The notes under the pieces were generated by a model. It ran no database searches. It had not been told where the DNA came from and worked only from the letters and a program-made list of their open reading frames with translations. Of a stretch of DNA of 64,000 bases, positions 3,501 through 60,167 are shown piece by piece. Position numbers and translations under genes: made by a program. Source of the stretch: Ginglymostoma cirratum (Eukaryota); assembly GCA_024137785.1 (NCBI GenBank), contig JAHRHZ010000080.1, positions 20,765,233 through 20,829,232 of the forward strand, in the 5' to 3' direction. Every line of letters begins with the position of its first letter. The first letter of the stretch is position 1.

Positions 3501-6500
3501 AATGAATCATATCGAAAGTAAAGAAGTCATAGTGTAATTTGTCAGTTCCCATTGGTGCTCAACCTGTCCCATTTCTATGTTGGGGCAAATGCTGCAACTA
3601 CACAAGGATCACTAGTACGTACTTGCTCTGAATAACTTCAACACTATTCTACACATGCTAATTTCTTACATTTGTTAATATTGTAACTTTGTAGGGTGGT
3701 TTTTCCAAGGACAACGTTCTGTAGAAACAAGCTGAGAACTCAGTGACAGTCAAAAAGACTGGCACGATAACAAATGTAATGGGAGCTTTTGGCTCAAGGC
3801 AGTGAAATCACCGTTCTTGAACAGTTTCGTGACTTTCAATGGCTTCAGTGCTTGATTGCCTCTAATGTTTGACTTACTTTTAGAGGCAATACTGTAATAC
3901 CAAGGGGCATGGCGGAATCTGAGATAGTAGCACATTGTTAAAGCATTCAGACATTTGGACATGGATGAACTGGCTAATTAACAGAGCAACCAGTTGAGCC
4001 ACACCATCGAGAAAAACATCTGTACGGGGGAGGTGATGGCCTAGTGGCATTATCGCTGGACTGATTAATTCAAAGACCCACATAACATTTTGGGGACCCA
4101 GGTTCAAATCCCGCCACAACAGATGTTGGAATTTGAATTCAATAAATATCTGGAATTAAGAATTTAATGATGACTGTGAAGCCATAGCTGATTGTTGGGA
4201 AAAACCCATCTGGTTCACTAATGCCCTTTAGGGAAGGAAACTGCCATCCTTACCTGGTCTGGCCTACATGTGACTTCAGACCCACAGCAATGTGGTTGAC
4301 TCTTACCTGCCTGTGGGCAATTAGGGATGGGCAATAAATGCTGCCGAGCCAGTGACACCCTCATCCCGTGAATGAATAAAGAAAACAAAAATTCAAGGCC
4401 GAGATAGATTTTTAATTAGTAAAGGAATGGAGGATTTTGGGGATAAGACTGGAAAGTGGAGTTGAGGATTTTCAGATCAGCCATAAGGGAATGGTGAAAC
4501 AGGCTTGATGGGCCGAATGGCTTACTGTTGCTCCTATGTCTTAATGGTCATACTGACCAGAGAGGTTTCAGAATTGACAGTCACTCATCAGAGTTAGCTA
4601 CGTTTGAATTCAAGCATTTTTCTCTCCTAATCAAGGAATTCTGCTTGAAAATGTACATGTCTACCAGATCAGAGCACAGGAACAGGAGATGGCCATTCAG
4701 CCCATCAAGCCTGCTCCACCATTCAAATACACTATGGCGGATCATCTGTCTCAATGCCACTTTCCCATACTCTGTCTGTATTCCTTGATCTAATTAATTG
4801 TCCAAAATCCAGCAATTTCTGTTTTGAAAATGCTCAATTATTGAGCTTCCACAGTGCTCTGGGGTACAGAATGCCAAAGATTCACCACCCTTGGAGTAAG
4901 GAACTTCCTCATTTCAGTCTTAAATAGTCTACCCGTATTCTGAGATTATGCCTCCTGGTTTTACACTCCCCATAAGGAGAAACATTTTATCAACATCCCT
5001 GCGACACCCTGTAAGCATTTTCAAAGTGTCAATGTGATCACCTCTCATTCTTCAAAACTCTAGAGAATACAGACTCGGGTTCCTCTATCTTTCCCCACAG
5101 GACAATCCTACAATCCCAGGGATTAGTTTGTTTATTCTTTGTTGCACTCTACCTATGGCAAGTATATACTTCCTTACGTAAGGAGTTACTGCTGACCTCT
5201 TCTGTGTAAATTCAAAGCCTTGACCAATCAGAATCAACCTGTCTGGGTTAAATGTTAAAACGAGGCTGAGTGTCATTGTTAACTGGTGCATTTGCCATAG
5301 CAACAGGTCTACCAGAGTTGACTTGCCAACCAATCATTAAAGTGACCCAGCCAGTCTTTGGACTAAACATAAAACAAACAGTCATCCTTACGTTGCACTA
5401 CACAACAGTATTTATCAAGAGTGTAAAACATCAATGTAGAGAGGGAATATGTAGCATAGCAAGAGCAAATCTTGCAACTCAATTTTTGTCGAAAATATTC
5501 TTACTTTTCGGAGGTACACAATAATTCTCATCTTACCCTCTCCCAAGAATCTCTTTTGCTGAGGGGTCTTCCAATGCTTCTCCTCTGAGCATGACTTCGC
5601 AGGTAGTCCCAACTGTCCAGACTCATTCCATCCCCAAACATAAAGATCTCCTGATGCTAAAGGGATTTTAAAAAAAAATAATGACAAATAATGGGCAAGT
5701 TATAAATAAATATATTGATAAACCAGATTTACACATTTAAGTATATGCCAATGGCAGATGAGGGTAAACATCTAGACTTTTAGACCAAGCGGAGGCTCGG
5801 AATCTATTGTATCTGCTGTTCCCAATGTGGTCTCCTCTACATCGGGGAGACCAAGCGGAGGCTCGGAGGCAACTTTGTGGAGCGCCTGCGCTCGATTCGT
5901 GACAGTCAACACCTCCCAGTCGCGAACCACTTCGACACTCCATCCCACTCCCTGGACGACATGTCCATCCTGGGCCTCCTCCAGCGTCACAAAGATGCCA
6001 CCTGGAAACTGGAGGAACAGCACGTCGTATTCCACCTTGGAAACCTACAACCCAATGGTCTCAATGTGGACTTTACCAGTTCAAAATCTCCCCAGCCCTG
6101 ACCTCATCCCAAGACCAGCACCCACTTCATCCCCGCCTCCTTGGCCTGTCCGTCTTCTCTCCCAACTATCTGCCCCTTCCTCCTCACTGACCAACACCCA
6201 TCCCCACTTCCTACCTACACGTACCTTTACTAGCTTCATCCCCACCTCCTTGACCTGTCCGTCTTCTCTTCCACCTATCCGCTCCACTATCCACCTTCTA
6301 TCACTGTGCCCCCTCTCTATTTATTTCAGAGCCCCCTTCCCCTCCTCCATTTCTGAAGAAGGGTCCAGCCTGAAACGTCAGCTTTCCTGCTCCTCTGATG
6401 CTGCCTGGCCTGCTGTGTTCATCCAGCTCCACACTTTGTTATCTCAAACTCCAGCATCAGCAGTTCCTACTATCTATGAGTAGATTTTTTAACAGTTGCG

Positions 6501-24700: not shown

Positions 24701-27700
24701 GTCTCCCTATCGTAGCTGTTCGTGCAGTTTACAAGGGTGGAAGCAACTGCAAAGAGAGCAGTTTTATCTTCGGTCTGGGAAGGAGCAAAAGCAAGAGATT
24801 GTTGTACACAGAACAGCGAGAATGGAAGATCAGTAGACACTGATCATCTCATTACAAATGATTTTATCACAAACAACTCAGATCGAACATTAGCAGAGAT
24901 GTGTATCAACCAAGTATCCACTCCCAACTGAGAGTCCAGTATCTGAACCAGAGGTTTTCATTTGAGTTGAGACATCCTGTTTGATTGTGGAGATTATCAG
25001 AGCTGATCTCAATCCTGTCCCAATTTCATATACATACATACAATCACACAGACACTAAAGGCAATCAGAGGGGACCCACCATAATTCTTAGGGCTAAAAG
25101 GATCAAATGGTATGGGGTGAAAGTGGGAACAGAGTACGCCAGGATAATCAACCAAAATCATATTGACTAGTGGAGCAGGTTCGAAGGCTGAATGGCCTAC
25201 TGTTTTCCTGTTTTCTATGTTTCTACGAAATGCTGGTCACCATTCTTACGCCCAATCCCAAGGGATTAAGAGACTAATAGCAATCTTTATTAATGCTCTG
25301 ATTAATAATTCAGCACAGAATAGGAATCAACAGGACAATGCAGTCACTGGCAGACTTGAAATCTATCTCGGTATAACTGCACAGAAAGGCAAGCATGTGA
25401 AGGCCCCTTGAAAGATGAAGGGGTCTGATACAACAAGTCAAAGGACAACATCAAGTGACTGGCCAGCGAACAGGCAAGATCAGCAAACATGCAAGATTCG
25501 TGCTCTTCCCCTCTATTGCTCACTTTTTTCGCTGTTTACCTTTGCCAGTTCAAACATAGCCTGCATTGCGGATTGGTCATCCACAAACTCCTCCTTCACA
25601 TCAGCATCGAAGGTCAGATAGGCCAGTCCCTCCACTGCCCAGCGACGAGTGCTGCACTGATTTGAGTTGTTACATAACCACCTAGCAAGAAAGTGGAACA
25701 GCAATGCGATCAGAAACAGCCTCCGTACACTGTCTATCACTTTACACCATCTCCCCAATTAATTCAGTCCACTGAGCCCACTGACTGTCACTGTACTAGC
25801 AAGTAATACAGGAACACTTTCAGTCCATGTCACTATCTTTTCTTGGACTGTTTTTATATTCTTCCTGTTTGGGAACCAGTACATTTTATTTTATTCATTC
25901 ATGGGATGAAGGCTTCAGTGAATGAGCGAACATTTATTGCCTATCCCTAATTGCCCAGAGTGCAGTTTTAGGAGTCAACCACATTGCCATGGGTCTGGAG
26001 TCACACGTAGGCCAAACCAGGTAAGGATGGTAGTTTAACAACAGAAAGAACTGCGGATGCTGTAGATCAGGAACAAAAACAAAGTTGCTGGAAAAGCTCA
26101 GCAGGTCTGGCAGCATCGATAAAGGGAAAAAAATAGAGTTAACGTTTCAGGTCCAGTGACGCTTCCTTAGAAGGATGGTAGTTTCCTTCCCTCAACAGCA
26201 TTAGTGAACAAGATGGGTTTTTCTGACAATTGGCAATGGATTCATGGTCATCAGTAGATTCCCTATGCCAGGTTATTATTGAACTTAAATTCTACCTTCT
26301 GCTGTGGCAGGATTCGAACCCAGGTACCCAAAACATTACCTGCAGCTCTAGATTAATAGGTCAGCGGTAATACCACTAGGCCATCACCTCCCAATTTAAT
26401 AGCTGTAATATTCAAACTAAACTAGATAGATCAATGGAATAGTCTGGGGCTCTTTAATCTAGACACACAAAGGGTGAGGGGTGACCTGATACAGAACTTA
26501 AATTATTAAGCAAAAACCGAAAGAACTGCAGATGCTGTAAATCAGGAACAAAAACGGAATTTGTTGGAAAAGCTCAGCAGGTCTGGCAGCATCTGTGAAG
26601 AAAAGTCAGAACTGAGGAAGGGTCACCAGATCCAAAATGTTAACTCTGACTTTTCTTCACAGATGCTGCCAGACCTTCTGAGTTTTTCCAGCAACCTCTG
26701 TTTGTGTTCTTAAATTATTCAGCATTCCAATAGTATAGCCGTGGAAAAGGTGCCTCTACTCATTGGGAAGACATGAGCAGGGGACATAAATCCAAATGGA
26801 ATTTCAGGAAAACACCCACAGTCTGTTGAGAAATTTGAACTCGTTCCTACCAGGAGTAGCTGAGGTGAACAGTATAGATGCATTTAAGAGGAATGGTGGA
26901 CAAACATGTGGGAAAGGAATGGAAGGATGTACTGATAGGGTGAGATGAATGAGGGTTAGAGGATGCTCTGGCATGCACCAGCTGGGTCCAAGTGCAGCCA
27001 TTCTGTCCTGTAGCTGTGTGTAGGAGTGTGTAATCCTTCCGAAATCAAAATGTCAGGGCTCCTGTGGTACAGTAGTAGCATCCTTTCCATCTTTGAGCCA
27101 GGAGGACCAGGTTCAAGTCCCACCTGCTCCTGAGGTGTGTGATAACATCTCTGAACAGGCTGATCAGAAAATATCTGAAATCAAACTACTGTGAGGATGT
27201 AACCCAATGAAACAAATGCACAATTACAAAAAAGCATCAATGGATCATGGCTATTCATACACGTGGATGAGTAGTTCCACAAATCCAATTCCTGACGGTT
27301 ATGCAAGTATAATACAAAACTCCCTTCATTAGAAACCTCACTAACAAGAACGACACTGCAGATGGTATAGGAACTATAAAAACGCTAAACTGATGTAGAG
27401 ATACTTTTCTGAAGCACACTGTTCACAGAGCAGAGGGAGCATTCTAAAGTAGGAAGTTCTATTCCCAAGCATTCCCATTTCTCAATAAGCATGAATAATA
27501 TTTAATAAAAAAAATCAGACAAATTGAATAATTGTGATTCTTCTTTCAAGCATCAGGACCCAGCTCACCTGCGACATTGCTTTGCCAGTTTGCAAGTCGA
27601 ACCTTCAGCAAACTGCTTCATGCTGTAGTCCGTTCCACCAGCAGATCCTACCTTGCACAGACCCTGAAACAGGAAACAGATTAAGATATGGGATTACATG

Positions 27701-33700: not shown

Positions 33701-36700
33701 CATTATATTTAGCACTGAATAAAAATTCGCAATGGGAGCAAAGTCAAATACAAAATTATATTCAACATATTTCACAATGCTCCCACTTCCTACCTGGAAA
33801 TTCTACTTTCCGTGATTAAATTTTATTTGAAGCAAACCTATGAACCACCTTGGGACATCTGACTACTCAAAGGCCCCATGGAGATGATGGTATAATGGTC
33901 ACTGGATTAGTAATTCAGAGGCCCAGACTAAATGGTCTACGGACATGAGTTCAAATCCCAACATGGCACTTGAGGAATTTATATTCAATTAATAAAATCT
34001 GCTTTGAAAGCTAGTCTTAGTAAAGGTGACCACGAAAACAAACATTTACGATAAAAACCTATTTAGTTTGCCGATGTTTGTTAGGGAAGGAAATTCGCCA
34101 TCCTCACCTGCCTACTTTATCTGGCCCACATGAGACTCCACAGCCACTGACATGTGGTTGATTCTCAACTGCCTTCTGCAACGGCTGAGCAAACCACTCA
34201 GTTCAAGGGCAATTAGGAATAAGAAAAGAAAAAACTGGAAGAACTGTGGACGTTGTAAATCAGAAACAAAAATAGAAGTTTCTGGAAAATCTCAGCAGGT
34301 CTGGCAGCTTCTGTAAGAAAAATCAAAGTTAACATTTCGGGTCTAGTGATCCTTCCTCAGAACTCAAAACAAGAAAGCTGGCTTTGCTCGTGACATCCAT
34401 ACCCCAAAGACTAAATTTTAAAAAGGCACTACCATACAGTCATAGAGATCTACAGCTCAGAAAACACTTCAGCCCATCATGTCCACGCCAGTCAAAATCA
34501 ATCACCCAACTATTTTAATCCCAGTTTCCAGCACTTGGCCCATAGCACTGTATGCCCTGCTTCTATATGAATAAAACTTGCACAATTTTTTAAATCATTC
34601 TTCTATGTCAACATTTTCCACTTCAATTTTGCAATGACAGTGTCAAGTTGGAGGGTCTGGTCACTGCACGGTTTTATATCATAGAAACTAGTGAGTTTAC
34701 AAAACAGAAAGAGGTCACTTAGCTCATCATGACTCCAAGCCACAAACCTAGTCTCAGTTTCCAGCATTTCAGCCCTATAGATGCTCTGTACAGCAAGACT
34801 TCATCATCATGGAAAATTATTATTCAAAAAGAATGGTGGAGAGATTGCTTTAGTCCTAGTTTTTCTGCGCCTGACTAACCCGGGATTGATGGCCTGAACA
34901 CAACCCCACGAGAGTCCGGAGTGAAGCCAGCATGATGTCTGCATTCCCAGTGTCCAACATCTTCTGGAGAAGGTGCACTCCATCACTGCGAAAAATCCTT
35001 TCAGCCCCTGCATCTTCCCGAGCAAGAACAATCAGATTCTGAATAGCCTGAAGGGGAAAGTAAATATTTAAAACAGGTATCTTATTTGGAATAAGAAGCT
35101 ATATGAATTCTCTGTTACAAATTTAAATTTAAATTCCAGCCATGCCCGGTGGGTAGCACTGTTATCTCAGAATTAGAAGGTTGTCAGGTGAAATCTTACG
35201 CTAGAACCTGACCACAGAAACTAAAATAACTCCAATACTGAAGGAGTGTTCCACTGTCAGAGGAACAGTCTCTCAGATAAGGTTGTTCAGTTTCCTTCTT
35301 AAAGGAGTTCAAAAGACGCCATGGCATCATTGCGGTTTTTTCACTATCAGGAATTTCAGGCAACATGACCAAAAACTAAGTCTTGATTATTTAACTGACA
35401 CTACACAGCTTCCTTCTAGACACAACTCACACACAGAAGTACAAAATCTATTACACTATTAGCTGTTAGTCCACAGTTCAAGGTGAATGCAGAACGAAAA
35501 CATTACACATTCAGTGTTATGCTGTATCTCAAACCTGAGACAGTTATCCTGACCCAGATACTTCTCACCTGCAGCACATACAGACCATTGTCTCTACTGA
35601 AATACTTTTAGTGAAACAGAGACCTTTTGTTTCTTGTCAGAGTCTTTCTCACTGGGATCCAAAAGGATGTTAAACATCTGCTCCACTCGGGCATCTGTAG
35701 AAGACTGCTGTCGGACCTAAAACGGAGATTAGGACACAATATAGTCCGGACATTACACTGGGAATATAAAAAACATCAACAAATTGAACTTCAGTGGCAA
35801 TGATGCAATCCTAAGTGATATTTAGCATCTTTCATTAATGACTTACTAATGACTTAAAAATTAATTTAGGGATCTTTAGAAAAGTTTACATTTCAATTTT
35901 GATTGATACTCTTCTTGTGAGCAAGCTGAAGAACTCTCTCCAAAACAGAGTCCAAGTTTGGAATGACTGACTCTAGAATTGCACACTTTATACACCCTAT
36001 GTTTTAGCTTACTGAAGCTCAGAAGTGACCAGAATAAATACATGGGGATGCAGCCTTGACAAAATAAAATAATCAGTATGAAAAACCTGAAGTCAATTTT
36101 TCTACAAAGCAACGCTGACAACATTTTTACATTTTTTTTGTTTATTCAATGGGCATAGCTGGCTGGGATTTGTTGCCAGGGCCATTTCAAAGGACAGTTA
36201 AGAGTCGACCACATTATCGTCTGGAGTCAATGATTTTCTTCCTTAAAAGGCATTAGTGAACCAGTGGTTTACAACAACCAACCACAAAGCTAGCTTTTAA
36301 TTCCAGATTTTCATTGATTGAAATTTCATCATCTGCCACGGTAGGATTTGATCTCATGTCCCATAACATTAGCCTGGATCTCTAGTTTACAAGTCCAGTG
36401 ATAATAAAAATTGCGCCACCACTTCTCTGTGGACCATGTGTTAAAAGGGAATAAACAAAGAAAACCCCAGAACCATATTTCGCTATAGTTTCTTACAGTT
36501 GTATACAGCTCTCTCCTCTGCCAATCTGACCCTTTCTACCTGAGAGATAGTGGGAACTGCAGATGCTGGAGAATCTGAGATAACAAGGTGTAGAGCTGGA
36601 TGAGCACAGCAGGCCAAGCAGCATCAGAGGAGCAGGAAAGCTGACGTTCCGGGCCCAGACCCTTCCGAAATGTCAGCTTTCCTGCTCCTCTGCTGCTGCT

Positions 36701-38850: not shown

Positions 38851-40841
38851 ACAATGTATTTGAATGAAGCAAGAGTTTGCAAAACCTTTATCCGCAGTGC
38901 TGCCCTTTACGAAATGCAACTGTTTTCATTGAAAGAAAACCGAGCAGGAAGTTTCCATTGAAAGTATCCAATCTTTATCTCTCAATATTGATTATTAATT
39001 TATGAAGATTCTGCAAACAGGGTCAAAACACTCAGGCTGAATGTGTTTCAATGCAATGCAATGCAGCTGCAATCAGCGTGGTATTGGAGTGAAGCACCCT
39101 AAAGTGCTGTATTGTACTTAACCAATTTACGTATGTTGTTCTTTTCTGTAATACCAAACTTTCAATGAGTTGTGCGTGTGCAAATGTTATTATTGAAGCG
39201 CATTTGTGCCAAAAATAGTAACAAGATTCTGTAGAAGCCATTACTGGCCTCAAAACGTTAACTCTATTTCTGTCTCCACAGATGCTGCCAGACCTGCTGA
39301 GGTGCTGCAGCAATATCTGGCTTTTGTGTATTTGCCACACTACTATCAATGCAGTCAACTTAAATCTGCATTATCTACACCCTTTTTCCCCAGCCTTCCA
39401 CAATTACATAAATGTTGTCCCCTCCACACTTCACATCAGCTCTGATGAAGAATCATCTAAAGAAGTAAAGATATCTTGCTGCAAATATGTGGTACCTTAA
39501 GGGACATATTCATTATGTTATTTTCATATCATGGCATGTGACCTGATGGTATAAAGCTCACATTACCTTTCTCTGTCTCCATGGATGCTGCCTGACCCCT
39601 ATGATTTCCAGCATTTTTTATTTTCACCACAGATTCCAGCATCTGCGTAATTTGGTCCTGCAATCAATGTGGTTCATCTGAGGAATACTCATCTGCTGGG
39701 TTTTATAAATTGGCTTTATTTTTGCCAAGTTTCTTTCTGCCTTTTAAAATAATGGCTGTTCACTGTACTGCAGTTCAATGGATTTTGGACGCTTTGGATA
39801 TACAGCAACACCAAGTCTCGGACAAACATTCTGTCTTCTACTCTATAAAGCTTAAATGCCTTGAATAGAAACGGTTCCCCAATCTTGGACCTCCTATCAT
39901 TCGTAGGAACATTGAATCAGAAATGGGCCATTCAGTCCATCAAGCCCACCCAGCAGCTGTAGACAATGTCCAATCATTTCCCCAAGTTACTTTCCTGCTA
40001 TATCTCCATATCTATTAATATTAGTCATATCCAGAAAATACCAATTTTTGCCTTGAAAATGCTCAATGACAGCTTTCACAGCTCTCTGGTGTAGAGAATT
40101 CCAAAGATTCACCACTGTCTGAGTGAAGAAATCCCTCCTCATTTCATTCTTAAATGGCCTATCCCTTACCCTGAGATGATGCCCCTTTCTAGAGTCACCA
40201 GCCAGAGTGATATAAATTTTCATTCTTCAAAACCAGAGAACATGCCCGGTTGCCTCAATCAGTCCACATAAGACAATCCCACCGTCACAAGGATTAACTG
40301 GGCGAATCTCTGTTGCATTCCTTCTATGGTAAGTACATCTTTCCTTCGATAAGGAGACCAAAATTGTACACAGTACTCCAGGTGAGCTTTCAACAAGACC
40401 CTGTTCAACAGCCAATACCAATACTGTGATGCTTACATTAGCTCCCCTAACATAAGGATGAAACGTAGGTCACATAGTACTGAAGACTAATGCTCCCCCA
40501 CTACTGAGCAGGTCCGAGCACACCAATCAGCATGGCATGCTGCAAGAGGACAGAGCTCAGTAAGACGGAGACATGTGAGCTTTATACCATTAGATCACAT
40601 CCCGTGATATGAAGATGACATAATGAGTATATCCCTTAAGGTACCACATATATGAGCAAGATATCTTTTATTCTGTACTTAGATCCCCTTGAAATTAATG
40701 CCAACCTACTGTTTGCTTTCTTAATTGCGCCTGGACACTAGGTATTAGTGACCCATGGACAAGGACACCCACATTTCACAACCTCTGACCATTTAAGAAA
40801 TATTACAGCATTTTTACTACCAAAATAAATAACTTCACACT

Positions 40842-41232
40842 TAGATTTTGGAGTAGATTTGTAGCTCGGGTTGTGGATGTTGTGGTTGGATGGCTCACCG
40901 AGCTGGTTCGTTTTCTTCTCCGCAGACATTTCATTACCCTGCTGGGTAACATCATCAATGCAGCCTCCGACGAAGCGCTGTTCTGTTTTCCCGCCTGGTA
41001 TTTAAACTCTGGAGTCCGTTGAGCTGGATTACCTCACTTCCGGTTTTTCTTCATAGTGGAGCGTATATGGGGTCGAGCTCTATGTGTTTGTTGGTGTCTT
41101 TCTTCATGGAGTACCAGGATTCTAGGAATTCCCGTGCTTGTCTCTGCTTTGCTTGTCCCAGGATTTTGGTGTTGTCCCAGTCGAATTGGTCGTTCTCCTT
41201 ATCCATGTGGATAGAGATGAGTGACAGTTCTT
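40842..41232 (-). mobile_element. Penelope-like element 3' fragment of a second family, with hammerhead-like core
   Basis: Minus-strand SLISIHMDKENDQFDWDNTKILGQAKQRQAREFLESWYS...HIELDPIY (GIY-YIG C-terminus); TTGATGA-TGTTACCC-AGCA-GGGTAAT-GAAA-TGTC at 40958-40925. Confidence 0.8.
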
Positions 41233-44658: not shown

Positions 44659-44758
44659 TTTTTCTGATGAAGGGTCTAGGCCCGAAATGTCAAGTTTTCC
44701 TGCTCCTATGATGCTGCTTGACCTGCTGTGTTCATCCAGCTGCACACCTTGTTATCTC
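44659..44758 (+). mobile_element. 100-bp Penelope-derived monomer with intact hammerhead-like core and 11-bp TSD
   Basis: CTGATGA-AGGGTCTAGGCCC-GAAA-TGTC at 44664-44691; TSD TTAAAGAAAAG at 44648-44658 and 44759-44769. Confidence 0.8.
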
Positions 44759-45406
44759 TTAAAGAAAAGGAAGGTGTTTTTAGTGTCCATGGCCTGCTGA
44801 GGGGCAAAGTCACCCATGATCCTGTGCTTCTGCACAACATCTAATGATTCCTATTGGGAAGTATTTGGCCAATGAGAGGAGAGGCACAAGGTTAGCAAAA
44901 CATCTGACCCTCCCATGTAAAGAACGGTTATGAGCATAATGTACTTATGCCAGCCCCAGTAAAGAATAATTGCACAGAACCTTCCTAGCCAGAAGGGAAT
45001 AAATGGAAAGAGTGTGCATAATTAGTTGGTTTTGTTGGCGATCGCAAAGACATTAAAAGTGGTAATTTTCTGATCAGCATCACTGGGAGAAATTATTCCT
45101 GCACCCAGTGTATCCACACAGCCCCAGTCTATTGCCAACAGCCACTGCTCCACATGTAACCTGGGAGACTGGAATTGCAGTCCATCTGTAACAGCTGCAA
45201 ACTCCGAGGCAGAGCAAACAGTCAACGTGGGAACATAGGAATTTGGAAATGAGAAAGACCAGAGTCCATTCAGTTTCCTTCTCTACCATTCTGATAGGTG
45301 TAATACCACAACACTAAATTATTGACTTAGGATACAAACATCTGAATTAGGAGCAGGAGTAGGCCACTCAGCCCTTCGTGCCTGTTCTCCAAATTCAATT
45401 AAGATC

Positions 45407-45625
45407 ATTTCAAAGATAGTAGGAACTGCAGGTGCTGGAGAATCTGAGATAATAAGGTGCGGAGCTGGATGAACACAGCAGGCCAAGCAGCATCAGAGGA
45501 GCAGGAAAGCTGACGTTTCAGGCCTAGACCCTTCTGAAGAATGGCCTAGGCCCGAAACGTCAGCTTTCCTGCTCCTATGATGCTGCTTGGCCTGCTGTGT
45601 TCATCCAGCTCCGCACTTTGTTATC
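45407..45625. mobile_element. Penelope-derived fold-back element with 12-bp TSD
   Basis: Inverted arms of about 83 bp; TSD TCAATTAAGATC at 45395-45406 and 45626-45637. Confidence 0.82.
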
Positions 45626-45889
45626 TCAATTAAGATCGTGCCTGAAACGATTATTCCACATTCCTGCCTGTCACCCTCAGAACATAAGAACTAGGAGTAG
45701 GAGTGGGCCATTCAGCCCCTCGAGCTGGCTCCACTATTTAATACAATCATGGCCGATCTCCTTTCAGCCTCAACTCCACTTTCCTGCCCACTCTTCATAA
45801 CCCTCCAAAGCATTACTCATTAAAAACCTGTCTATCTCCACCGTAAATTTACTCAGCATTTTGAAGCTGCTACTCTAATCCTAAAATAT

Positions 45890-46100
45890 ATCCAAGATGT
45901 GGAAGTGCCTTGTTGGACTGAGGCGGACAAAGTCAGAAGTCACACGACACCAGGTTATAGTCCAACAGGTTCATTTGAAATCACAAGCTTTCAGAATTAA
46001 GTGAAGTCACTTCACCTGACAAAAGAAGCAGTGCTCCGAAAGCTTATGATTTCAAATAAACCTGTTGGACTATATCCTGATGTCATGTGACTTCTGACTA
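45890..46100. mobile_element. Fold-back element of a third family, probably Penelope-derived
   Basis: AGTCAGAAGTCACACGACACCAGGTTATAGTCCAACAGG..AAGCTTTC inverted against GAAAGCTT..CCTGTTGGACTATA..TGTGACTTCTGACT; degenerate core at 46016-46045; monomer at about 56170-56255. Confidence 0.7.
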
Positions 46101-47418
46101 TAATAATGTCATAATCTTTCACCTCCTTGCCTGTCAAGAAGCTATCTATCTCTGCCTTTAAAATACTTAAAGACTCCGCTTCCATTGCATTTTCAGGAAG
46201 AGAGTTCCAAAGAAAATAAATTTCCTTATCTCTGTTTTGAATAGGTAATCCCATATTAAACAGTGTCCGCTCAATCTGGATTCCCCAAAAAGAAACATCG
46301 TCTCCATCCATCCTGTCAAGAACCCTTATATCTTTCAATCAAGTTACCTCTCATCCTTCTAAACTCCAGTGAATACAAGCTTAGTCTGTCCACCCTTTCT
46401 TCATAAGACAACCTTCCCATTCCAGGTGTTAGTCTAGTAAACGTTCTCTGACCCGATTCCAGTATATTTACATCCATCACTGTGATTACACTCTATCCAA
46501 TTGGAAAATCCCCAGTGGTGGAGAACCCTGAGATCTAGGGGTTCAAAGTTACCTAAAAACTGAAATTGCAGGAGAAACTCATCAGATCTGACAGCATCCG
46601 TGGAGAGAGAAAAATGGCGATTACATCTCAGGTCAAATGTGGCTTCTTCAGAACTGAAGGATGTTCCGAAGGATCATTTCAAACTCCAAATGTCAACTTT
46701 ATTTCTCTCACCACAGATGCTTCAAGACCTGCTGAATATTTTCCAGCAATTTATGTTTTTATTTCAGATTTCCAGCATATGCAATAGTTTGCTTTCATTC
46801 CAAAGTCACCTGCTCCTCTCAAAGATGTTGCACTTATCACAGGTTGTCTCAAATTATTTATGTGATCAATCCCAGAATGTTGCCATCTGAATGATGTCTA
46901 TTTAATGTATGTGGTCTGAACCGAGTCATAACACAGTGAGCTTGGGTACAAGTACACGTAGTCTGATTTTATCATATTAGTTATAACTGGTCACCTGAGC
47001 TAGCCCATGGAAAGAAATAGAAATTTACATTTATATACATTTTCATGACTATCAGATACCTTGGAGCGCTTCACTGACAATGGACTACTTTTCACATGTA
47101 GTCACCACTGTAATGTCAGAAATGTAGCAACCAATTTGTGCACAGCAATTTCCCACTATCAGCAATGTAATAATGACAAGGCAATCCTTTTAATGTTAAG
47201 GTATAAATATTGACTAAGACACCATGGAGAATTCTCTCGCTGTCCTTCAAACAGTGCAAGCGATCTGAAGGCATAGACAGAGCCATGGTTGCAATATTTA
47301 GCTGTGAACCCAGCCTCCCCTTAAAGATCAGCTCAATGCTGGCATTTCCACCACTGCCCAGTCATGTCATCAATGAAAAGATCTTTAAATGTCAGTAGAT
47401 CTAAGCTGCCTGAATGCC

Positions 47419-47668
47419 ATTAACCCAGTGATGACCATTAATCCAGTAATGAGCATGAACCCAGTGATAATCATTGACTCATTGATGACCATTAATCCAG
47501 TAATGAGCATGAACCCAGTGATAATCGTTGATTCATTGATGACCATTAATCCAGTAATGAGCATGAACCCAGTGATAATCATTGACTCATTGATGACCAT
47601 GATGGAACATGACCATTGATTCATCGATGACCATTTACTCAGCAATGACCATTGCCCCGGTGATGACA
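47419..47668. repeat. 18-bp minisatellite with 54-bp higher-order unit
   Basis: CCAGTGATAATCATTGAC/TCATTGATGACCATTAAT/CCAGTAATGAGCATGAAC starting at 47461, 47515 and 47569, with decayed 18-mers on both sides. Confidence 0.9.
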
Positions 47669-47859: not shown

Positions 47860-50800
47860 CTGGGGGGGGTGAGAAGAAAACAAGACAGGACACAAATCAG
47901 CTATTAATGATGAACAGCAGAGTACCTGTAATAATAAGTTAGGAAATGTCACCAACACAATTTCAAACAGTCAATCAATAATGAAGCAACCTTTCCTATC
48001 ATGGCATCTATTTATTGTAATATTGGAGAGCTTATGTAGCAATGGGTAGTGTCCCTGTCTCTGAGCCAGAAGCTTCAGGTTCAAGTCCCATTTCAAGACT
48101 TGATGGCCTCGGACACTGCATTTATGACACAGGCAAGTAGGTTGAGGATCAACCTGTAAATCCTTACAATTCACACCAATGGCAGGATGTAAGAGTGGGA
48201 GAGATTCTTGGTCAACCATGTGATGGAAAGAACACTGCAGCCACTTCCATCATCATCCGTGGCTCCAGAGTGCAACATGTGAAAGTGCATGTTGCTACAA
48301 AGGCTCAGTTCCCTTTGGGGAGCCAGTTGGCTGGTGCAGGTACGATCAGTGCTCGTTCCCTGTTCCAGCCTGGGCTGGATATTCGACCTGCCTCCTTGCC
48401 CTACCTATGATGAAGGTGGCAGCACCAGGCATTGGATCTGCCTTTGTGCAGAGAACTGAAGAAGATGATTTAATCAAACAATAGCCATTGCTACTCTTAC
48501 TGGAAGGTACAGGAACTTGATCTCTGGTCTGTATTTTATCAGCTGACCTCAGCTATGGCAATAAAGGTAAGATATTTGACAGTCTGTGCTCCAGGATTAC
48601 AGATAGACCCTTTGCTCCCCGCCCTTCCATGCCCAACACACGTCTCAGGGGTTACAGGGCAGCATCCAGATGTGGGAACATTGGCTGAATTCCAGCACCT
48701 CCTGTCTTTGGCTTCTGATCTGACAAAGGGTCACTCGACCTGGAATGTTAACACTGAATTCTCTCCACGGATGCTGCCAGCTTTGCTGAGCTTTTCCAGC
48801 AATTTCTGTTTTTGTGTCAGCAATGAGCTGCTCCCACCAAGACAACAATCATCCTCTGACTCACTACTACTACACCTCACTTTCCAATCATTAAATTTAA
48901 GAAAACCCACTTTCCTTTCAATTGGCACGGTGGGAGGTCCATGATGGGGAGGTGATGGCCTCGTGATATTATCACTGTACTGCTAATCCAGAGACCCAGA
49001 TAATGTTCTGGGGACCCAGGTTCAAATCCTGCCATGGCAGATTGTGGAATTTTAATCCAATAAATATCTGGAATTAAGAATCTAATGATGACTATGAATC
49101 CGTTGTCGATTGTCGGAAAAACCCATCTGGTTCATTAATGTCCTTTAGGGAAGGAACCTGCCATCCTTACCTGGTCTGGCCAAAATGTGACTCCAGACCC
49201 ACAGCAATGTGGTTGACTCTTAACTGCCGTCTGGGCAATTAGGGATGGGCAATAAATACTGCCCAGCCAGCAACACCCTAATCCTGTGAATGAATAAAAT
49301 AAAATGAAGACACTCCAACTCAAAGCCATCACTAGTTTGACAGCTATCCCGTGAACCTGCACTATTCTCCTGCACCTGCACATACGCTGGTCCCATTTTC
49401 ATACGTACACAGAGCTCCTGGTCTGTGCTGACTTGTTCATTTTCATTGTGCTCTGAAATTCAGCTTCATTGCAGCAATATTTCAAGGTTTGGTTGCTCTG
49501 ACGACAGCAGTGGGTTTGTCTCTGATCTTCATTAAGCCGCGGACAGTGGAATCCAGAGTGGTACTTTTTTGCAGCATCCAGATACGGCTCACAGATCCTG
49601 TACTTAGAAGCAGAAACTGAAAGGCGAGAGGTTATTGTCAGGTCAACATACATTGTGGTTTCAACAGAGGTACAATGCAACTGCAATTCAGGGCAACAAC
49701 ACAACCAAACATCGAAGACTGTGAATATTTTCAGGAAACCAGGCCAACAGATGGCAGATGCAAGTTGATAATCCATAAACAGTCAGGAATAAAACTTTAT
49801 TTTGTCCTTTTCCTACTTCTTCAAAAACCTCCCTTCCTCTTCACAAGCGTGACAGTTAGTGCACAGACCTACTCTAATATTTTACCCAAACATCTCTTTT
49901 TAATGCAATAGTCTAGACAGCAAGTTCAACAGTTTTTTAACTTGTCAAGGTAATCATTAATGGCCCTATCTTGTCCTGATTCATTGCCAAACCAACATCC
50001 CAGCATCAACGAATGGGCAGAGGTGAGACAGACAGGGAGTGCCACCCATGGCTCAGTGGGTAGTACTCTCACTTTGAGTCAGGAAGTTAGAGCCTAGGTT
50101 GACAGCGCACTATGAGAGAGTCATCACACTGTTAGGATAAGACATTAAACTGAAACCCTGATCATACTCTCAGGTGGACATAAAAGCTCCCATGAGACAT
50201 TTTAAACAATGGTAAGGAAGTTCTCACATGGGTCCCGGCTGTTAACTGTGTATTAATTATATTTAATTAAATGCAATTGGTGGTCATTGACTGATGATTC
50301 ACCTAGATCCCTTGACACAGACTGAAACTACGTTTGTTCAGTTAGGAGCTGCATGCTTATAATATGGAACTCTGTGAATACATTTAACTGTGTAAAAATT
50401 AGTGCACTACTCTCTGCACCAGTTGGCTTTCTGCATTAAAACACTGGCCAATATCTTCCCCTTAACTAACGATGCTAAAACAGACTATCTGGTTATTTAT
50501 CATATTGCTGCTCATGAGAGTTTGTTCTGTGGAAATTAGCTGCTGCACTTCCTACATTGTCCCAGTAACTACACTTTTCAAAACGTTCTTAATTGTTTGT
50601 ACAGCACATTGGGACCGGAGATTGTTGAAGATTCTATACACATGCAATTACATAATGTAGGAGCAAATTTCTGCAGATCCTGGAATCCATAATGGAAACA
50701 AACAGTGCTGGAAGTCACAACAGGTCAGGCAGTATCCATCAGCTCTGCTGAAGAGTCATCTAGGCTTGAAACATTAGCTTGCTCTCTCTCCACAGATGCT

Positions 50801-50913
50801 GCCTGACTCGCTGTGGTTTCCAGCATTTTGTGTTTTCAGTTCTTTCTTCACATACCTGTTACCAGTAATTCACACAGCAGCAGTGAAGTCAGGAGTTGAC
50901 AGAAACGTGACAT
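47673..50913 (-). CDS. Shisa-like 1 (KIAA1644)-like single-pass membrane protein, spliced CDS (453 nt, 150 aa)
   Basis: complement(join(47673..47859,49409..49616,50856..50913)): MSRFCQLLTSLLLCELLVTVSASKYRICEPYLDAAKKYHSGFHCPRLNEDQRQTHCCRQSNQTLKYCCNEAEFQSTMKMNKSAQTRSSVNYGSMAVVFVYGLCVVALLLTDLLHYYMLNRHNLWWYQPPHCLCGCCNGDHKKTSSDTTQK*. Signal peptide, six-Cys shisa domain and TM segment resemble recalled SHISAL1 (RVCEPY..YHFGFHCPRL..CC..KYCCNETEFQ..NY..YG..LDLLYY). Orthology is uncertain, so no symbol is given. Confidence 0.85.
48946..49298 (+). mobile_element. SINE family B copy
   Basis: Well-preserved copy in a SHISAL1-like intron. Confidence 0.8.
49409..49616 (-). CDS. SHISAL1-like exon: shisa Cys-rich ectodomain
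   Basis: cctttcag acceptor, gtacgt donor (phase 2); RICEPY..GFHCPRL..HCC..KYCCNEAEFQ. Confidence 0.9.
50040..50650 (+). mobile_element. Ancient DeuSINE (SacSINE1-like), interrupted
   Basis: CATGGCTCAGTGGGTAGTACTCTC..GAGTCAG head and Deu-like GGATAAGACATTAAACTGA..CTCTCAGGTGGACATAAAAGCTCCCATG; related decayed copies at about 15985-16260(+), 35140-35340(+), 44095-44245(-), 47020-47270(-) and 59180-59680(-). Confidence 0.6.
50856..50913 (-). CDS. SHISAL1-like exon: start codon and signal peptide
   Basis: gccatcATG; MSRFCQLLTSLLLCELLVT; CAG|gtatgt phase 1 matches the next exon; candidate upstream acceptors near 50949 and 50969. Confidence 0.8.
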
Positions 50914-52937
50914 GATGGCATCCAAAGCCTGGATCTCTAATTGTCATCCTAAAGGATGTTGCTGGTACCTTAAAACAAAGTAGACCTTTTATTTAAAACA
51001 AAACCCGAAAGAACTGCAGATGCTGGAAATCTGAAACAAAAACAGAAATTGCTGGAAAAGCTCAGCAGGTCTGACACCATCTGTGGAGACAGATCAAAGT
51101 TAATGTTTTGGTCCAGTGACCCTTCCTCAGAAGCAGTTCTGTTCTTCAATTCTTCAGTTAATGAAACATCAGAGTAGGTTCACTGGACTAATACCTGGAA
51201 TAGGAGAGTTGTCTGTCATGAGGAAAGGTTAGACAGGTTTGGAGTATAAAACAGTCATTGATGACTTGATTGAAAAATCAAAGATCCTGAGGGGACTTGA
51301 ACAGGTGGAGGTGGAAAGGATGTTTCAGCTTTGGAGAGGAACTTGGGGCCACTTTTAACATCTGGGGTCACCACTTTAAAACTGAGATGAGGCAATTATT
51401 TTCACAAGTCTCTGAAGAAGATGGGGCAGAGTCTTTGGGTATTTTTAAGGCAGATGTGTGTGGATTCTTGTTAAGAGAGGAGGTGAAAAGTTATCACAAG
51501 TAAGTGGGAGTGTGGAATTGAAGTTACAATCAGGTCAGCCATGATGTTATTAAATGGCAGAGCAGGCTCGAGGGGCTGAATGGTCTATTCCTTCTTGTTT
51601 CTATTTTCATATTTCAAACATTAAAACAGTGACTGTCACAGGCAGGCAAGTGGTTTGGTAAAGTTGTAGGAAAGTTGTAAAGGGCTCTGTGGAAAGACAA
51701 AGTTGTTTCTTTATCAATCTGTGTTGATGCTAATAATTTGGAAGCTGCTGTAAGCTTCCCTTGTTGTAAACAGTATTTCAAATAAGTGATAGCTGTTTTG
51801 TAGTTACTACTCCAAATCTTACAGACATTTATAGGATATTGAATGGCATGGATAGAGTGGAAAGTATGAGGCCTTTTCCCAGGCTGGAGGGGTCAATTAC
51901 TAGGGGCACAGATTCGAGGTGCAGGTGGGAGATGTTTAAAACTGATGTACGAGTCAAGTTTCTCTCACAAAGCTGTAGTGAGTGCCTGGAACACACTGCC
52001 AGAGGAGGTGGTGGAAGCAGATACAATAGCAGCATTCAAGAGGCACCTGGATGACTACATGAATAGGAAGGGAATAGAGGGATATGGATCCTATAAGTGA
52101 AGACAGTTTTCATATGGAATGGCAAAATGTGTTGGTGCAGGCTTGGAGGGCTGAAGGGCCTGTTCCTGTGCTGTCTTGTTCTTTGTTCTTGTTCTTATTA
52201 ACTATGATCTCTGCTTGGACCTACACCTTGCTGCTTTCCCTTATGTGGCCAGATCCTCCCATTGGCCAGAGTCATACTGACAAAGAGAAGGAGATGGGCA
52301 AAGAGACAGAGAGAGAGGGATGAAAGTAGAATTCAGAGAAAGTGGGGGGGAGAGTAAAAAAAGAGAAAGAACAGAAGAGGGACAACTAAAGGACAGTGAG
52401 GAAGAGAGAAAAGATATTGAAAAGGTAATTTCTTTCCCTACCAACCTAATAAAATAGCCTTTCAATAATCACAGTTTCAGTTCACATGAAAAAAAATGCA
52501 CGTTGGGAGAGAAGAAGGCTGGTGTCTAGAGAATGTACTTGAGTAAATAGTAAATCTTGGGGAAAAATAGGAAAATCAGAATCATTCCCAATGGATTTTA
52601 CGTACAGTGCACTCTGAGGATCTTTCTACTACATTCCAGACCAATGGTAAATTAAAGAAACGAAAGATCTGCAGATGCTGTAAATCGGGAACAAAAACAG
52701 AAGTTGCTGAGAAAGCTCAGTAGGCAGCAATAGGTGTCATGGGGCCCTGACCAAGTTAACTTGTACGTTCGTATCAGTCCTACACCTTTTTTAACGGACC
52801 CCTGCCCTCTCAGCCTCCTGACCCCACTGTCTCAGTTCTGACTGAAGAAATCACGACAATTGTCAAGCCTTGATACGTGGTCACAGTCACAACAGGTTTG
52901 AAAAGCGGTGGTATATCACTAGTTAATCTCTTATGAT

Positions 52938-54930: not shown

Positions 54931-57155
54931 TGTTCTTATCACCTTTCTATTTAATTACTCCCATGTCAGCCATTATACAGTGACGCCTCTCTGCCAGCAA
55001 TGTCTAAGTTCCCAATCCTTTCCGCAAACAAATCAACTTTTCGTGACCAAAATAGAAATTGCTGGAGAAACTCAGCAGGTCCGGCAGCATCTGGGGAGAG
55101 AGAAACAGAGTTCCGGTCCAGTGACCCTTCTTCAGAACTGATTGTACCTCGGTAAAGGCTGGTACATATGCTGCACACAGGGAGTGGGGGTAGGTGAGAG
55201 AAAGGAGTAAGTGATAGGTGGAGATGGAGCCCAGAGAGAGAAAGAAATTAGCACTGGTCAAACCAAGAGATGGATAATGGTGAGCCAAGAGAAAGAAAAG
55301 TTGCTAATGGACCGTTAGTGGGTGAAAATGGGTTAGTTATGATGAAAGCAGCCCATGTGATGACAGGGCCAAGGGTGTGGGAGTGAGTAAACTTCAGCAT
55401 CTGCAATTATTGATACAAAAATAGAAATTGCTGGAAAAGCTCAGCAGGTCTGGCAGCATCTACCCAGAGATATCAGCGTTATCCACAGATGCTACCAGAC
55501 CTGCTGATTTCTTTTTTAAAAGCAATTTCTGTTTTCGTTCTGATTTACAGCATTCACAGTTCTTTTGGCTTTTTATCTCAAATTATTGAAATCGATATTG
55601 AGCCCTGAAGGCTGTAGGGTCCCCAAGTGGATAATGAGCTGCTGCTCTTCAAGTTTGCAGGAGCCAGAGACAGAAACATTGGCCGGGGAACACGTTAATT
55701 CCAACCCTGTGTCTCCAAAGGGCCCCTTCACACTGGTAGATGATTTTCGACTTCAGGAGCTTTACCTTCAAAATGCCTCACCTAATTCCCAGGCCCAGGA
55801 ATTTCACTCTTTCCATGTCATTTCTCTTCTGTCACTTATGACTTGATTGTGATCATGAAATTAATTTGTTTCAACATGTGAAATCATGTTTTGTAGATTA
55901 TGGCTCAAACCCACTGTCCCTTACATCTGCTTGTGTGTCATTAATGGTTACATTGCAAGCATCAACGAGACAAATGTCATGGAATGGAAGAATTGAAACA
56001 GCCTCTGATGAAACCTCACATTTTTTATCCAACTGTCTCTACAAAGTGAGAATTCATCTTTAAAAAAGTCAAACCACCATCACTCGTTCCATCTCCATCA
56101 ATTTCACAGGCATTGGTCACTCCCTCTCCTTCCATCCCAAATGATCCCTTTGGATCTTCACCTCTTCTTCACCTGACAAAGGAGCAGTGCTACAAAAGCT
56201 TGTGATTTTAAATAAACCTGTTGGACTATAGCCTGGTGTCATGTGACTTCTGACCTGGGGGTCTTGACGGAACAGATGCAAAAATGCTGTTTCCCCTGGT
56301 GGGAGTGTCTCGGACTACAAGGCATAATCTCAGATTAATCAGTTGCACAATTAAAACAGAGATATTGATGAATTTATTTTCCCATGAGAAAGTGAATCTG
56401 TGGAATTCTTTACCGCTGAGGGCTGTAGAAGCTGGATCATTAAGTCTATTCAAGGCTGAGATGGACAGATTTTTAATCAGGAAGGGAATTAAGGATTATG
56501 GGGAAAAGACAGGAAAGTGGAGTTGAGGATTATCAAACCAGACACGACCTCCTCGAAGAGTGGAGCAGATATAATGAGTTGAATGGTCTACTTCTGTTCC
56601 TATGTCTTATGGTCATTTAGTATTAAACCACATTCCATATTTTACCTCAAGAACACCCACCAGAAAACAAATAACTGAAACACACAAAACATTTCAGGGA
56701 GTGCAGTTATTATTATTTAAAATTATGTATTTGTTTTAAATTGAGCAGAAATTAATCAGAAATTTGAATGTTTTGAGTTTAATTATAACTTGGCTGTAGT
56801 TTATATTCTGTACAAGTAGTGAAGACATTAAGTGATTTCAATTCCATGTAAAACTCTTATTAATAATAATTTTCATGCACTTTTAAAACTAAATTGAGAT
56901 TGGCCTTCAAATGAAAGTACACATCTGCTCTAAACCATTACTCCATCATGTAATTCACTCCCGGACTTCCTTTCAACAACATGTAAACCAGCAAGGAGGA
57001 GCGGCAGAGTCCATCCCTAGCCTTGAGTATCATCAATCATTCATGACATGGTGGGCACAAAGAGGGAAGGGCACAACAGATGGAGAACGAGTTAATAATG
57101 GAGCTTCAGACGGATGTGACCAAGTTGTGGAAAACAACTGAGTGGACCTCAGTAT

Positions 57156-57460: not shown

Positions 57461-57539
57461 AAAAAAACTCATCCTGCAGAACTTTGGTAACGCCTACATT
57501 AATATTTTGGTGGGAAATATGACACAAAATCCTGCAAAT

Positions 57540-57840: not shown

Positions 57841-60167
57841 GCCTAGGTTAGGTTATAGATAACACAGTGTGGAGCTGGAGGAATACATTTTTGAAGAAAG
57901 GTCCTGACCTGAAACATCAACTTTCCTGCTCCTCTGTTGCTGACTGGCCTGCTGCGTTCCTGCTGCTCCACAGTGTTATCTCTAACTCCAGCATCAGCAG
58001 TTCTCACTATCTCTAGATTAGGTCAAAGAGTTTTATACATGGAAAGAGACCCTTCAGCCCATCATGTCCATGCGTCATCAAATGTGTATCTATTCCAGTC
58101 CCATCACTTCACCTGTAGCCTTGTATGCTATAGAGTGATCATCCAAATACTATTTAATCATTGGGATGATTCCTCCCTCTACCACCCTTTCAGGCAGAAT
58201 TCCCGATACCCACCACCCTCTGGGTGAAAAAAATTCTTCCTGAAGTTCCTTCTAAATCCCCTGTCTTTTCTTTAAATTTATGCTGCCTGGTTATTGATCC
58301 CTTTACCATGGGGAAAAGATTATTGCTATCTACCTTATCCATGCCCCTCATAATTTTGCCATCTCAATCAGGCTCCCTCCTCAGCCTTCTCTGCTCTAAC
58401 AAAAACAACACCAGCCTATTGTGTGTCTTCAAAGCTGAAGCACTTCAGTGTAAGCAACATCCTGGTGAATCTTCACTCAACCTTTCCAGTGCAATGACAT
58501 CCTCACTATTGTGTGGCAATCAAACACAAACTGGAGAGTGTTGAAACCCCAAGGATCGATCCACCGACCTGCCTCTCTCATTGAACACCACCTACCCCTC
58601 CTGAGGCAGGGTGGACAGAGCCAGCAGCTGACTGTTCCCTCACCTCAGGACCTACAACTCCTGCATGTGAGAAAGTCATCAACAGTCCTGAGGGACTGCA
58701 TACAATGACAAGAACACTTCTGTGAAGTTGCTCGGTTTGCCATTTTAACAAGTTGCTAATATGTTAAAATATTCATGGCAATATTAACCTCTTTTTCAAG
58801 ACATAAGACATAGGAGAAATAGGCCATTTAGCCCATAAATCTGTTGTACCATTTAGTTCACCTCCACTTTCTTGCCCTTTTGTCAAAACCCTTGATTCCC
58901 CTATCTGATTAAAAAGTTGTCTATTTCAGCCTTGGATATATTTAATTACCCAGCCTTCAACAGTCCTGTTCTATAAAGAATTCCACAAATTGCCTACTTG
59001 CTGAGAGAAAATGTAAAGAGTCATGTTCTCCTGGTTCAATGGCCCTCCCACAATGAGCACCAACAAAAGGTTGACTGGTCATTCGTCACATTGCTTTCAG
59101 TGAGTTATCACCTGTAAAGAATGGAAGCTGTTTGTTTTACAAAAATAATTACACTTCAGAAAGAAATTCATTATTAAAGAAAAAAAAAATCAGCATTTAT
59201 ATCATGCTTTCCACCAACACCGTTCATCTAAAAGCTCTCCACAGCCAATGGTGCACTTTTAGGATTGAGTAATTATCGTGATGTAGGAAATATGGCAATT
59301 TGCATACATAAGATTCCCACAAAAAACAAAGATAATGACTAGACAGTCTATGTTGTGAGGAATAATGGTCTGGACCCTGGATTACTCCTTTACTTTTCAA
59401 AATAGTATGATGGGATCTCTGACATTCACTTGAGGGGACAGAAAGAACCACTGTTTAATGTGTCATCCGAAAGACGGACAACATTCTGTTCCTCTGTTCC
59501 TCAGAACAGAGGAAGGGTCACTGGACCCAAAACGTTAACACTGAGTTTTTCTTCACAGATGCTGCCAGACCTGCTGAGCTTTTCCAGCAACTCCTGCTTT
59601 TGTAACATAGCAACACTTCCTCAATGGAGTGGAGTGTCAGAACAGATTGTGATATTCAAGTCCTTGTGTGAAACATGAACCAAGAATGCTATCCAAGCTG
59701 ATCCTGAGATGATAAAACACATTAGATTATTAAACAATGTGACAAAGCATTGAAAATAAAACTTGACACCTGAGGTCTTTAAAGTTGTGGAAGGGTTCAA
59801 TAAAGCAAGCACAAAGATATTTCACTTGTGACTGAGTACCACAAAAAGGGAAATGTCACTAATGGGTCAAAGAATTTAGGAGGAATTTCTTTACCTAGAA
59901 AGTGATGAGATTGTGTAACTTTCTGTCACTGAGTGGTTGAAGCAGTTACTGTTGAGAGAAATACATAACAGGAAGGAATAGAGAGATAAGGGACTGTTGA
60001 GGGAGATAATAGAGTGTGGATGGAGTCTTTTGTTGAATATTAATATTAGCACAAATCACTTGGACTGAATAAGCATGGGGCTGGATGAGCACAGCAGGTC
60101 AAGCAGCATCATAGGAGCAGGAAAACTCGACGTTTCGGGCCTAAACCCTTCATCAGAAAAAGGGTTT

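Follow-up and report, generated by a model that had tools for sequence, protein, structure and literature searches.

Insertions of endonuclease-bearing (EN+) Penelope-like elements (PLEs) follow a recognizable plan. The accessible parts of the reports on A. vaga Pen2a (PMC3846280) and of Craig 2021 (PMC8557442) describe pseudo-long terminal repeats (pLTRs) inverted head to head, a tail of 30-40 bp on one arm, a target-site duplication (TSD), a putative TATA box with an initiator (Inr) in the pLTR, and a Cys-rich linker that defines the Neptune group. The same features recur in the stretch analyzed here, 64,000 nucleotides of Ginglymostoma cirratum DNA (contig JAHRHZ010000080.1, positions 20,765,233 to 20,829,232; referred to as the window), and in a sample of the same genome. 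Compared with those accounts, as far as they could be seen, many insertions here lack the coding body, TSDs measure 12-17 bp rather than 8-10 bp, copies are very numerous, and 5' ends concentrate at a predicted transcription start. The reading developed below, to which a probability of about 0.65 is assigned, is that these short copies are dead by-products of the PLE reverse transcriptase (RT), which would start 80-135 nt inside the leader of its own RNA and run off the RNA 5' end.

The minimal type I hammerhead ribozymes of metazoan PLEs provide a second point of comparison. In the available sections of Cervera and De la Pena 2014 (PMC4209133), these share with the present copies the core, an extra nucleotide before helix II, a G10.1-C11.1 pair, a short helix I, and a palindromic remnant of helix III, and they occur mostly as single dispersed copies ascribed to truncated PLEs. 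The counts given there, obtained with a different descriptor (about 4,000 for coelacanth and about 9,000 for Xenopus), contrast with the roughly 170,000-340,000 extrapolated here, and family A of this genome differs in a helix I of just 2-4 bp. Evidence from an in vitro system comes from the Poseidon element PAc of Anolis (Frangieh 2024, PMC11167929). It is reported that both target strands are cut and extended, that RT starts at two internal sites bounding the tail, that a hammerhead near the start of the open reading frame (ORF) is dispensable, its cleavage not being needed, and that the protein is a predicted dimer. In PAc the hammerhead overlaps the ORF, whereas families A and C of this genome are of Neptune type with the hammerhead in the leader, and the strict one-of-each pairing found here was not observed in vitro. 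Non-LTR retrozymes (PMC7229834; bioRxiv 10.64898/2026.07.22.740005), within the parts of these sources covered, are likewise non-coding, derived from pLTRs, equipped with a type I hammerhead, and associated with large TSDs. They form head-to-tail arrays that yield circular RNA, whereas the copies here are single or head-to-head. Inverted pLTRs, one-sided tails, TSDs, a putative TATA box with Inr, and dispersed minimal hammerheads from truncated PLEs are thus already described in the literature as far as it was accessible. A literature search returned no report of a start-site pile-up or of strict tailed/untailed pairing, nor of these elasmobranch-type elements, of PLE strong-stop products, or of twin priming in PLEs, although supplements, subscription papers, and Repbase or Dfam may hold part of this.

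A profile search of the window returned 32 matches, comprising 31 terminal-repeat (hammerhead-region) arms and one coding-only fragment. By hand count from the result tables, the arms represent 24 insertions of four PLE families, designated A (11 arms), C (16, plus the coding-only fragment), B (3), and P (1). This confirms the observation, made previously in a sequence-only reading, of dispersed hammerhead-like and Penelope-derived repeats belonging to at least three families. The vertebrate genome (4.36 Gb) was sampled in 10-kb stretches, 140 in all, taken at round positions on large contigs; N makes up about half of this sequence, leaving 708,630 unmasked bases. These contain 190 arms (A 100, C 68, B 10, and P 12), which extrapolates to about 0.6 million genome-wide if masked DNA holds none and to 1.2 million if density is uniform.

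The short repeats are almost certainly terminal-repeat pieces of endonuclease-bearing Penelope-like retrotransposons, judging from their longer relatives. Within the window, the peptide encoded at 5784-6098 gives a weak Pfam GIY-YIG match (E 0.012, below the cut-off), and the peptide at 41051-41239 gives no Pfam match. The parentage is settled by longer relatives that combine RT, a Cys-rich linker, and GIY-YIG. An RVT_1 match at E 1e-6 occurs in relative L033, and RT-linker-GIY-YIG frames were found in parents L045, L278, L281, and L287. The remnant at 5782-6476 has thousands of candidates across the genome, and the family C terminal repeat is tied to upstream parent sequence with GIY-YIG matches at 8 loci. 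The linker motif FPCN..C..C is present in the parents of A and C and absent in P. A Cys-rich linker between RT and EN is the criterion for Neptune in the part of PMC3846280 that was seen. By this criterion, rather than by an RT tree, families A and C classify as Neptune-type, and family P (the remnant at 40843-41232) classifies as Poseidon-type because the Cys linker is lacking.

In the family C parents L287, L281, and L280, the pLTR stands in partial tandem before the ORF, and the 5' pLTR with its tail runs into the ORF about 40 nt past the tail. In family B the tail ends at the ATG (L218 and L210). Just the N-terminal ~780 nt of the family B ORF was seen (L218), without a Pfam match; its ORF-start motifs are presumably PLE-like, and the family is otherwise unplaced. 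A search for the family A ORF start with L033:1-500 matched just a nested family C copy and found no full-length A parent. The hammerhead sits in the 5' leader of the messenger RNA in families B and C, and by homology it probably does so in family A. The order in full-length parents is TATA-like box, Inr-like motif, minimal hammerhead, tail, and ORF start. A pyrimidine tract with CAG lies 2 nt before the family C ATG (L287 at about 600-635, and also L281, L280, and L278), and L278 begins just upstream. This is a candidate acceptor of a 5'-untranslated-region (5'-UTR) intron, like that of D. virilis Penelope.

Positions of 5' ends were counted relative to core nucleotide C3. Among the 100 family A arms of the sample, 23 that adjoin N or a locus edge were excluded. 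Another 15 ends mapped to -190 because an internal repeat misled the alignment; these arms remain in the total as long copies. On this basis, 34 of 77 A arms end within -8..+1 (P ~1e-42 versus uniform truncation), and 29 of 68 C arms end within -8..-1 (P ~4e-34). The clustering of 5' ends near the ribozyme that had been suggested from the window is thereby supported, with a peak 3-7 nt upstream of the core. Short A copies (64 in all) match the parent with 86-97% identity at -1..-3, a level that falls to 36% at -4 and to background by -5. In family C identity drops at -3..-5, and in family B at about -7, in a set biased by its query. The sharpest 5' boundary found belongs to two family B palindromes (L210 and L214), which join by a single central base exactly at -7. 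Upstream of the core, the parents carry exactly one TATA-like hexamer, at -35 in A (in 680 nt), -33 in C (in 624 nt), and -37 in B (in 313 nt). This box stands 29-31 nt above an Inr-like A at -4 (A), -4 (C), or -7 (B), and the short copies lack it. The short copies probably begin where transcription of their parents starts, some 30 nt downstream of the TATA box.

Head-to-head palindromes (7 in the window), TSDs, and two 3' ends are features beyond the sequence-only reading. The 3' ends are bimodal, and the two modes lie 31-38 nt apart, a distance that equals the PLE tail. Sample and window together contain 30 head-to-head pairs: 25 join a tailed to an untailed arm, one has two untailed arms, no pair has two tailed ones, and four are unclassified. 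One of the 30 is a local duplicate, a single palindromic insertion present twice with shared flanks (L169:1302-1521 and 3377-3596), so that 24 of 25 independent pairs are tailed plus untailed (P 8e-7). Loci obtained through searches add 39 classifiable pairs, all of the mixed kind, and five unclassified ones, which brings the combined figure to 63 of 64. TSD scores of at least 9, mostly for repeats of 12-17 bp, were obtained for 21 of 30 pairs (0-3 in 10 shuffles) and for 14 of 91 single arms (0-1 in shuffles). The tail and TSD signatures support the earlier proposal of insertion by PLE RT and EN. A short inverted piece lies upstream in 17 of 91 singles, versus 2 in control flanks. Arms are more alike within pairs than between them (0.918 versus 0.866 in A, p 3e-4; p 0.06 in C), and none of 63 palindrome junction strings recurs, apart from the L169 local duplication. 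Each palindrome is one insertion event. At one locus (L018), an inverted piece of the tail adjoins the 3' end of an untailed family A arm.

The proposed mechanism begins with RNA polymerase II, which would initiate where helix I begins on its 5' side, some 30 nt downstream of the TATA box. The GIY-YIG domain would nick both target strands 12-17 nt apart, a step with in vitro precedent. Each nicked 3' end could then prime RT, one at a distal (tailed) site and the other at a proximal (untailed) site, and neither cDNA would extend past the RNA 5' end, much as in retroviral strong-stop DNA. Head-to-head joining of the two cDNAs would involve variable microhomology or filler, and a single arm would remain where one of the two aborts. 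Minus-strand strong-stop DNA of retroviruses is cDNA made from an internal start up to the RNA 5' end; in L1 twin priming, both target strands serve as primers. The present system would differ from these in that its short cDNA becomes integrated and its two arms are copies of one and the same segment, not of adjacent ones. Twin synthesis, with one priming event per nicked strand, is the somewhat favored form of this mechanism. Among unbiased pairs, the start is not reached by 9 of 28 tailed arms and by 8 of 28 untailed ones. By hand count, the untailed arm extends more than 10 nt further 5' than the tailed arm in 20 of 63 junctions, with search loci biased toward full arms. That both types fall short equally often, with the untailed arm often reaching further, favors two priming events, although later deletions could blur the comparison.

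Several observations weigh against the run-off reading. The transcription start is a prediction from DNA ends, and no excess of cap-derived G appears at the junction (13 of 64 in A). The family A box is the variant TATTTA, added to the search pattern after being noticed, and A and C are related, so that the three TATA boxes do not amount to three independent tests. No 5' clustering is seen among the 12 copies of family P. No TSD is detectable in 77 of 91 single arms, the higher identity within pairs could stem from gene conversion, and the trees discussed below, built on about 95 columns, have little power. The internal promoter of D. virilis Penelope has no TATA box (PMC2377424), which implies that short copies might still be transcribed. 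In addition, strict one-of-each pairing requires a strand difference in RT start site, and the accessible part of the PAc report describes none in vitro (PMC11167929).

The sequence-only reading had taken the short copies for non-autonomous units of retrozyme type. In its general form, this explanation holds that self-propagating, SINE-like or retrozyme-like mini-elements owe their transcripts to an internal promoter or to read-through, that these transcripts are processed by hammerhead dimers, and that the PLE RT and EN re-insert them. Such an origin would agree with the very high copy number, with a fixed 5' boundary that encloses the whole ribozyme, with the internal promoter of D. virilis Penelope, with the derivation of Xenopus retrozymes from pLTRs (bioRxiv 10.64898/2026.07.22.740005, from the part seen), and with a family C core that is less variable than the sequence downstream. 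The arrangement of the copies argues otherwise. Head-to-tail tandem hammerhead units, which characterize retrozymes, are nearly absent: the tandem-repeat program TRF finds no hammerhead array in the window, and just two same-strand short-short neighbor pairs occur among 208 arms. Nor do the short copies form a lineage of their own that propagates as a unit, either on the trees, whose resolution is low, or in the junction strings (0 of 63 repeating). Short and long copies mix on the trees (16 changes in A versus 18.3 shuffled, with 69 of 500 shuffles as low; 9 in C versus 10.1), and one short copy is identical to two long ones. The family A core is no better conserved than its surroundings and decays at CpG, and the family C signal is confounded by mixed subfamilies. 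Mini-elements are accordingly judged quite improbable, and the copies are very probably by-products rather than self-propagating units.

Fold-back or self-priming would instead derive both arms from one cDNA that folds back at its end and copies itself (for A. vaga, an antisense template has been proposed in this role), with EN trimming the second arm at the short end. It is the published model for head-to-head PLE junctions in the accessible text of PMC3846280, and it accounts for strict tailed/untailed pairing and high identity within pairs. However, the tailed arm should then always reach at least as far 5', against 20 of 63 junctions in which the untailed arm reaches further; the two arm types fall short of the start about equally often, and an untailed cDNA cannot template a tail. 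This explanation appears unlikely, although later deletions at the palindrome center could blur the arm-reach comparison. The 5' boundary itself might be structural, produced by RT drop-off or RNA trimming at the 5' edge of a folded or protein-bound hammerhead, or by a splice acceptor. In A, B, and C the boundary does fall on the strand that forms the 5' side of helix I, the D. virilis intron ends at helix I according to the sections of PMC4209133 seen, and the missing cap-G signal fits as well. Yet RT approaches the structure from its 3' side, so that stalled products should end downstream of the core, and the TATA spacing would be left unexplained. Splicing in particular is not supported, as A and B lack AG at the boundary, C copies often keep their AG, and no upstream exon is common to the short copies. 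A structural origin is therefore considered very improbable. Hammerhead cleavage as the source of the 5' ends has next to nothing in its favor. A few family C alignments do start at +27..+29, but these copies are old (81-88% identity), and several carry a decayed core upstream. A cleavage product would start near +28 to +30, where no peak is present, and because the cluster lies about 30 nt upstream of the predicted cleavage site, end mapping largely refutes this origin.

The hammerhead motif itself is real and was retained by selection in active parents, with these copies carrying it as a passenger; self-cleavage is a predicted activity. A descriptor (CTGANGA, helix II of at least 3 bp, GAAA, NN, TH) finds 3 matches in the window versus 0 in each of 10 shuffles, and 55 in the sample versus 0-4 in 10 shuffles, a density of about 78 matches per Mb from which the genome-wide figure of roughly 170,000-340,000 derives. 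The architecture supports the minimal type I hammerhead proposed earlier. Between families, helices I and II show compensatory changes, with base pair 1 of helix I being U-A, U-A, C-G, and A-U and base pair 3 of helix II being G-C, G-C, A-U, and U-A across the four. Pairing reaches 0.69 in helix I and 0.85 in helix II versus 0.56 and 0.68 after permutation (0 of 1000 as high), in 64 distinct core-only hits in which only four lineages drive the signal. MAFFT alignments of the core put family B out of register, and pair counts were therefore anchored in a script. The palindromic remnant of helix III reads ACGT in 32 of 72 core-only hits and CpG-decay forms in 27 more; the family B profile has AGCT.

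The weak helix I noted earlier holds for family A, as does the decay of most cores, since the core boxes CTGANGA..GAAA..TH are retained in 7 of 31 window arms. A low-divergence family A subfamily (L092, L143, L149, L161, L253, and the window copy at 60156) has a helix I of 4 bp, better than older A subfamilies. An excess of core conservation had also been expected. None is present in family A (median variability 0.04 versus 0.04 downstream), and in family C it is present (0.07 versus 0.11) with the confounding already mentioned. Core decay occurs mainly at CpG. Monomer folds are unremarkable except in family P (z -2.2), and in three palindromes of the window the GAAA core is predicted to pair with the opposite arm, which would bury it in a long hairpin. 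The Rfam scan suggested as a check gave 29 matches at E<=10 in the window, none to a hammerhead model; the matches are microRNA-like hairpins caused by the palindromes. High hammerhead numbers in a genome of this kind mostly reflect dead copies, not active ribozymes.

A wider interpretation is offered as a tentative possibility. The 0.6-1.2 million copies may be integrated strong-stop-like cDNAs that record the PLE cycle, in which a dimeric RT-EN would prime both nicks, always at two different sites, and copy the leader to the cap. A full-length copy would then need a jump. Here the 32 nt between start and cleavage site could serve as an R region of the retroviral kind, and the RNA 3' end that matches it would arise when the 3' pLTR is cleaved. 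If correct, this would assign a defined function to the PLE hammerhead, and a single model would cover inverted repeats, the one-sided tail, and the regeneration of pLTRs. The accessible text of PMC8557442, PMC2377424, and PMC3846280 calls the origin of inverted pLTRs and of the one-sided tail undefined. One locus (L218:594-1628) holds a family B copy that runs from the predicted start through the hammerhead, the ATG, and ~780 nt of ORF and directly abuts a second start-site copy with tail. Its arrangement looks like a template jump after run-off, as an R region would call for. More generally, the counts constrain PLE integration through 63 of 64 mixed pairs and through 5' ends within about 1 nt of the predicted start. 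Both constraints can be tested in the existing in vitro PLE system.

All five motifs quoted in the sequence-only reading are present in the window, and the core is intact at 6353-6379 (plus), 44664-44691 (plus), and 60156-60129 (minus). The first belongs to a 5'-truncated, Neptune-type family A remnant on the plus strand (5782..6476), which contains the end of GIY-YIG to 6101, the 3' UTR/pLTR, the hammerhead, and the tail. This motif had been placed directly behind the GIY-YIG remnant. The link to PLEs holds, but about 250 nt of 3' UTR separate the end of the frame (6101) from the motif (6353). A TATA-like hexamer at 6318..6323 (plus), the predicted promoter, lies 31 nt above the predicted +1 A at 6349; cleavage is predicted after 6379, and helix I has just 2 bp. 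Head-to-head pairs of family A with a tailed and an untailed arm lie at 36543..36744 (17-bp TSD, 36525-36541 / 36739-36755) and 45414..45628 (both arms starting at -2; 12-bp TSD, 45395-45406 / 45626-45637), and one in the order untailed plus tailed at 37890..38098 (12-bp TSD, 37878-37889 / 38099-38110). A further insertion at 57857..58014 (plus) joins a tailed arm (57886-58014) to a short inverted untailed arm (57857-57887), with an 11-bp TSD containing one mismatch. Single untailed A arms occur at 37212..37297 (minus; 14-bp TSD, one mismatch) and at 44661..44758 (plus), where the arm starts at -3, includes the intact core at 44664-44691, and is flanked by an 11-bp TSD (44648-44658 / 44759-44769). 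The family A arm at 60076..60159 (minus) also starts at -3; a run of 400 N (60168-60567) hides its upstream flank and any inverted arm.

Family B contributes a tailed plus untailed pair at 45896..46099 and a single untailed arm at 56167..56254 (plus). The motif at 46016-46045 (plus), within the pair, is degenerate as had been noted, with G8 changed to A. Family P is represented by the 5'-truncated Poseidon-type remnant at 40843..41232 (minus), which retains the end of GIY-YIG and a hammerhead at 40958-40925 with a helix I of 5 bp, a helix II of 7 bp, and C3 changed to T.

Family C pairs comprise 26512..26725 (minus arm tailed, plus-arm end unclassified), an old pair at 46555..46783, and an untailed plus tailed pair without hammerhead at 55412..55575 (15-bp TSD, two mismatches). 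Single tailed C arms, all on the minus strand, lie at 26036..26181 (decayed core; 13-bp TSD-like repeat), 34230..34364 (start at -4, core boxes intact), and 51000..51132 (start at -2), together with a tailed 3' fragment at 52653..52724 (minus). Untailed copies include a single arm at 48719..48818 (plus), an arm at 59501..59603 (plus), and a longer copy at 55046..55381 (minus). The remaining C arms, on the plus strand, are an old one at 32105..32186, a decayed one at 39253..39327, and a divergent one at 50693..50836, which has intact core boxes at 50748 and a partial inverted arm upstream.

The PLE copies of the window lie between host exons. These exons are all on the minus strand, with matches to RCC1, UNC45-central, TPR, and Shisa_N, at 435-812, 5415-5696, 30386-30784, 36775-37167, and 49399-49779. 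A near-perfect palindrome at 19110-19212 (arms of ~45 bp, 7-nt loop, 91% self-identity) matches none of families A, B, C, and P. Tandem repeats occur at 47417-47654 (period 18/54), within a repetitive minus-strand open frame, and at 38268-38586 (period 69). Other dispersed repeats at 24082-24407, 28772-29084, and 41966-42312, which we take to resemble short or long interspersed elements (SINE-like or LINE-like), include a weak transfer RNA match at 41977-42059.

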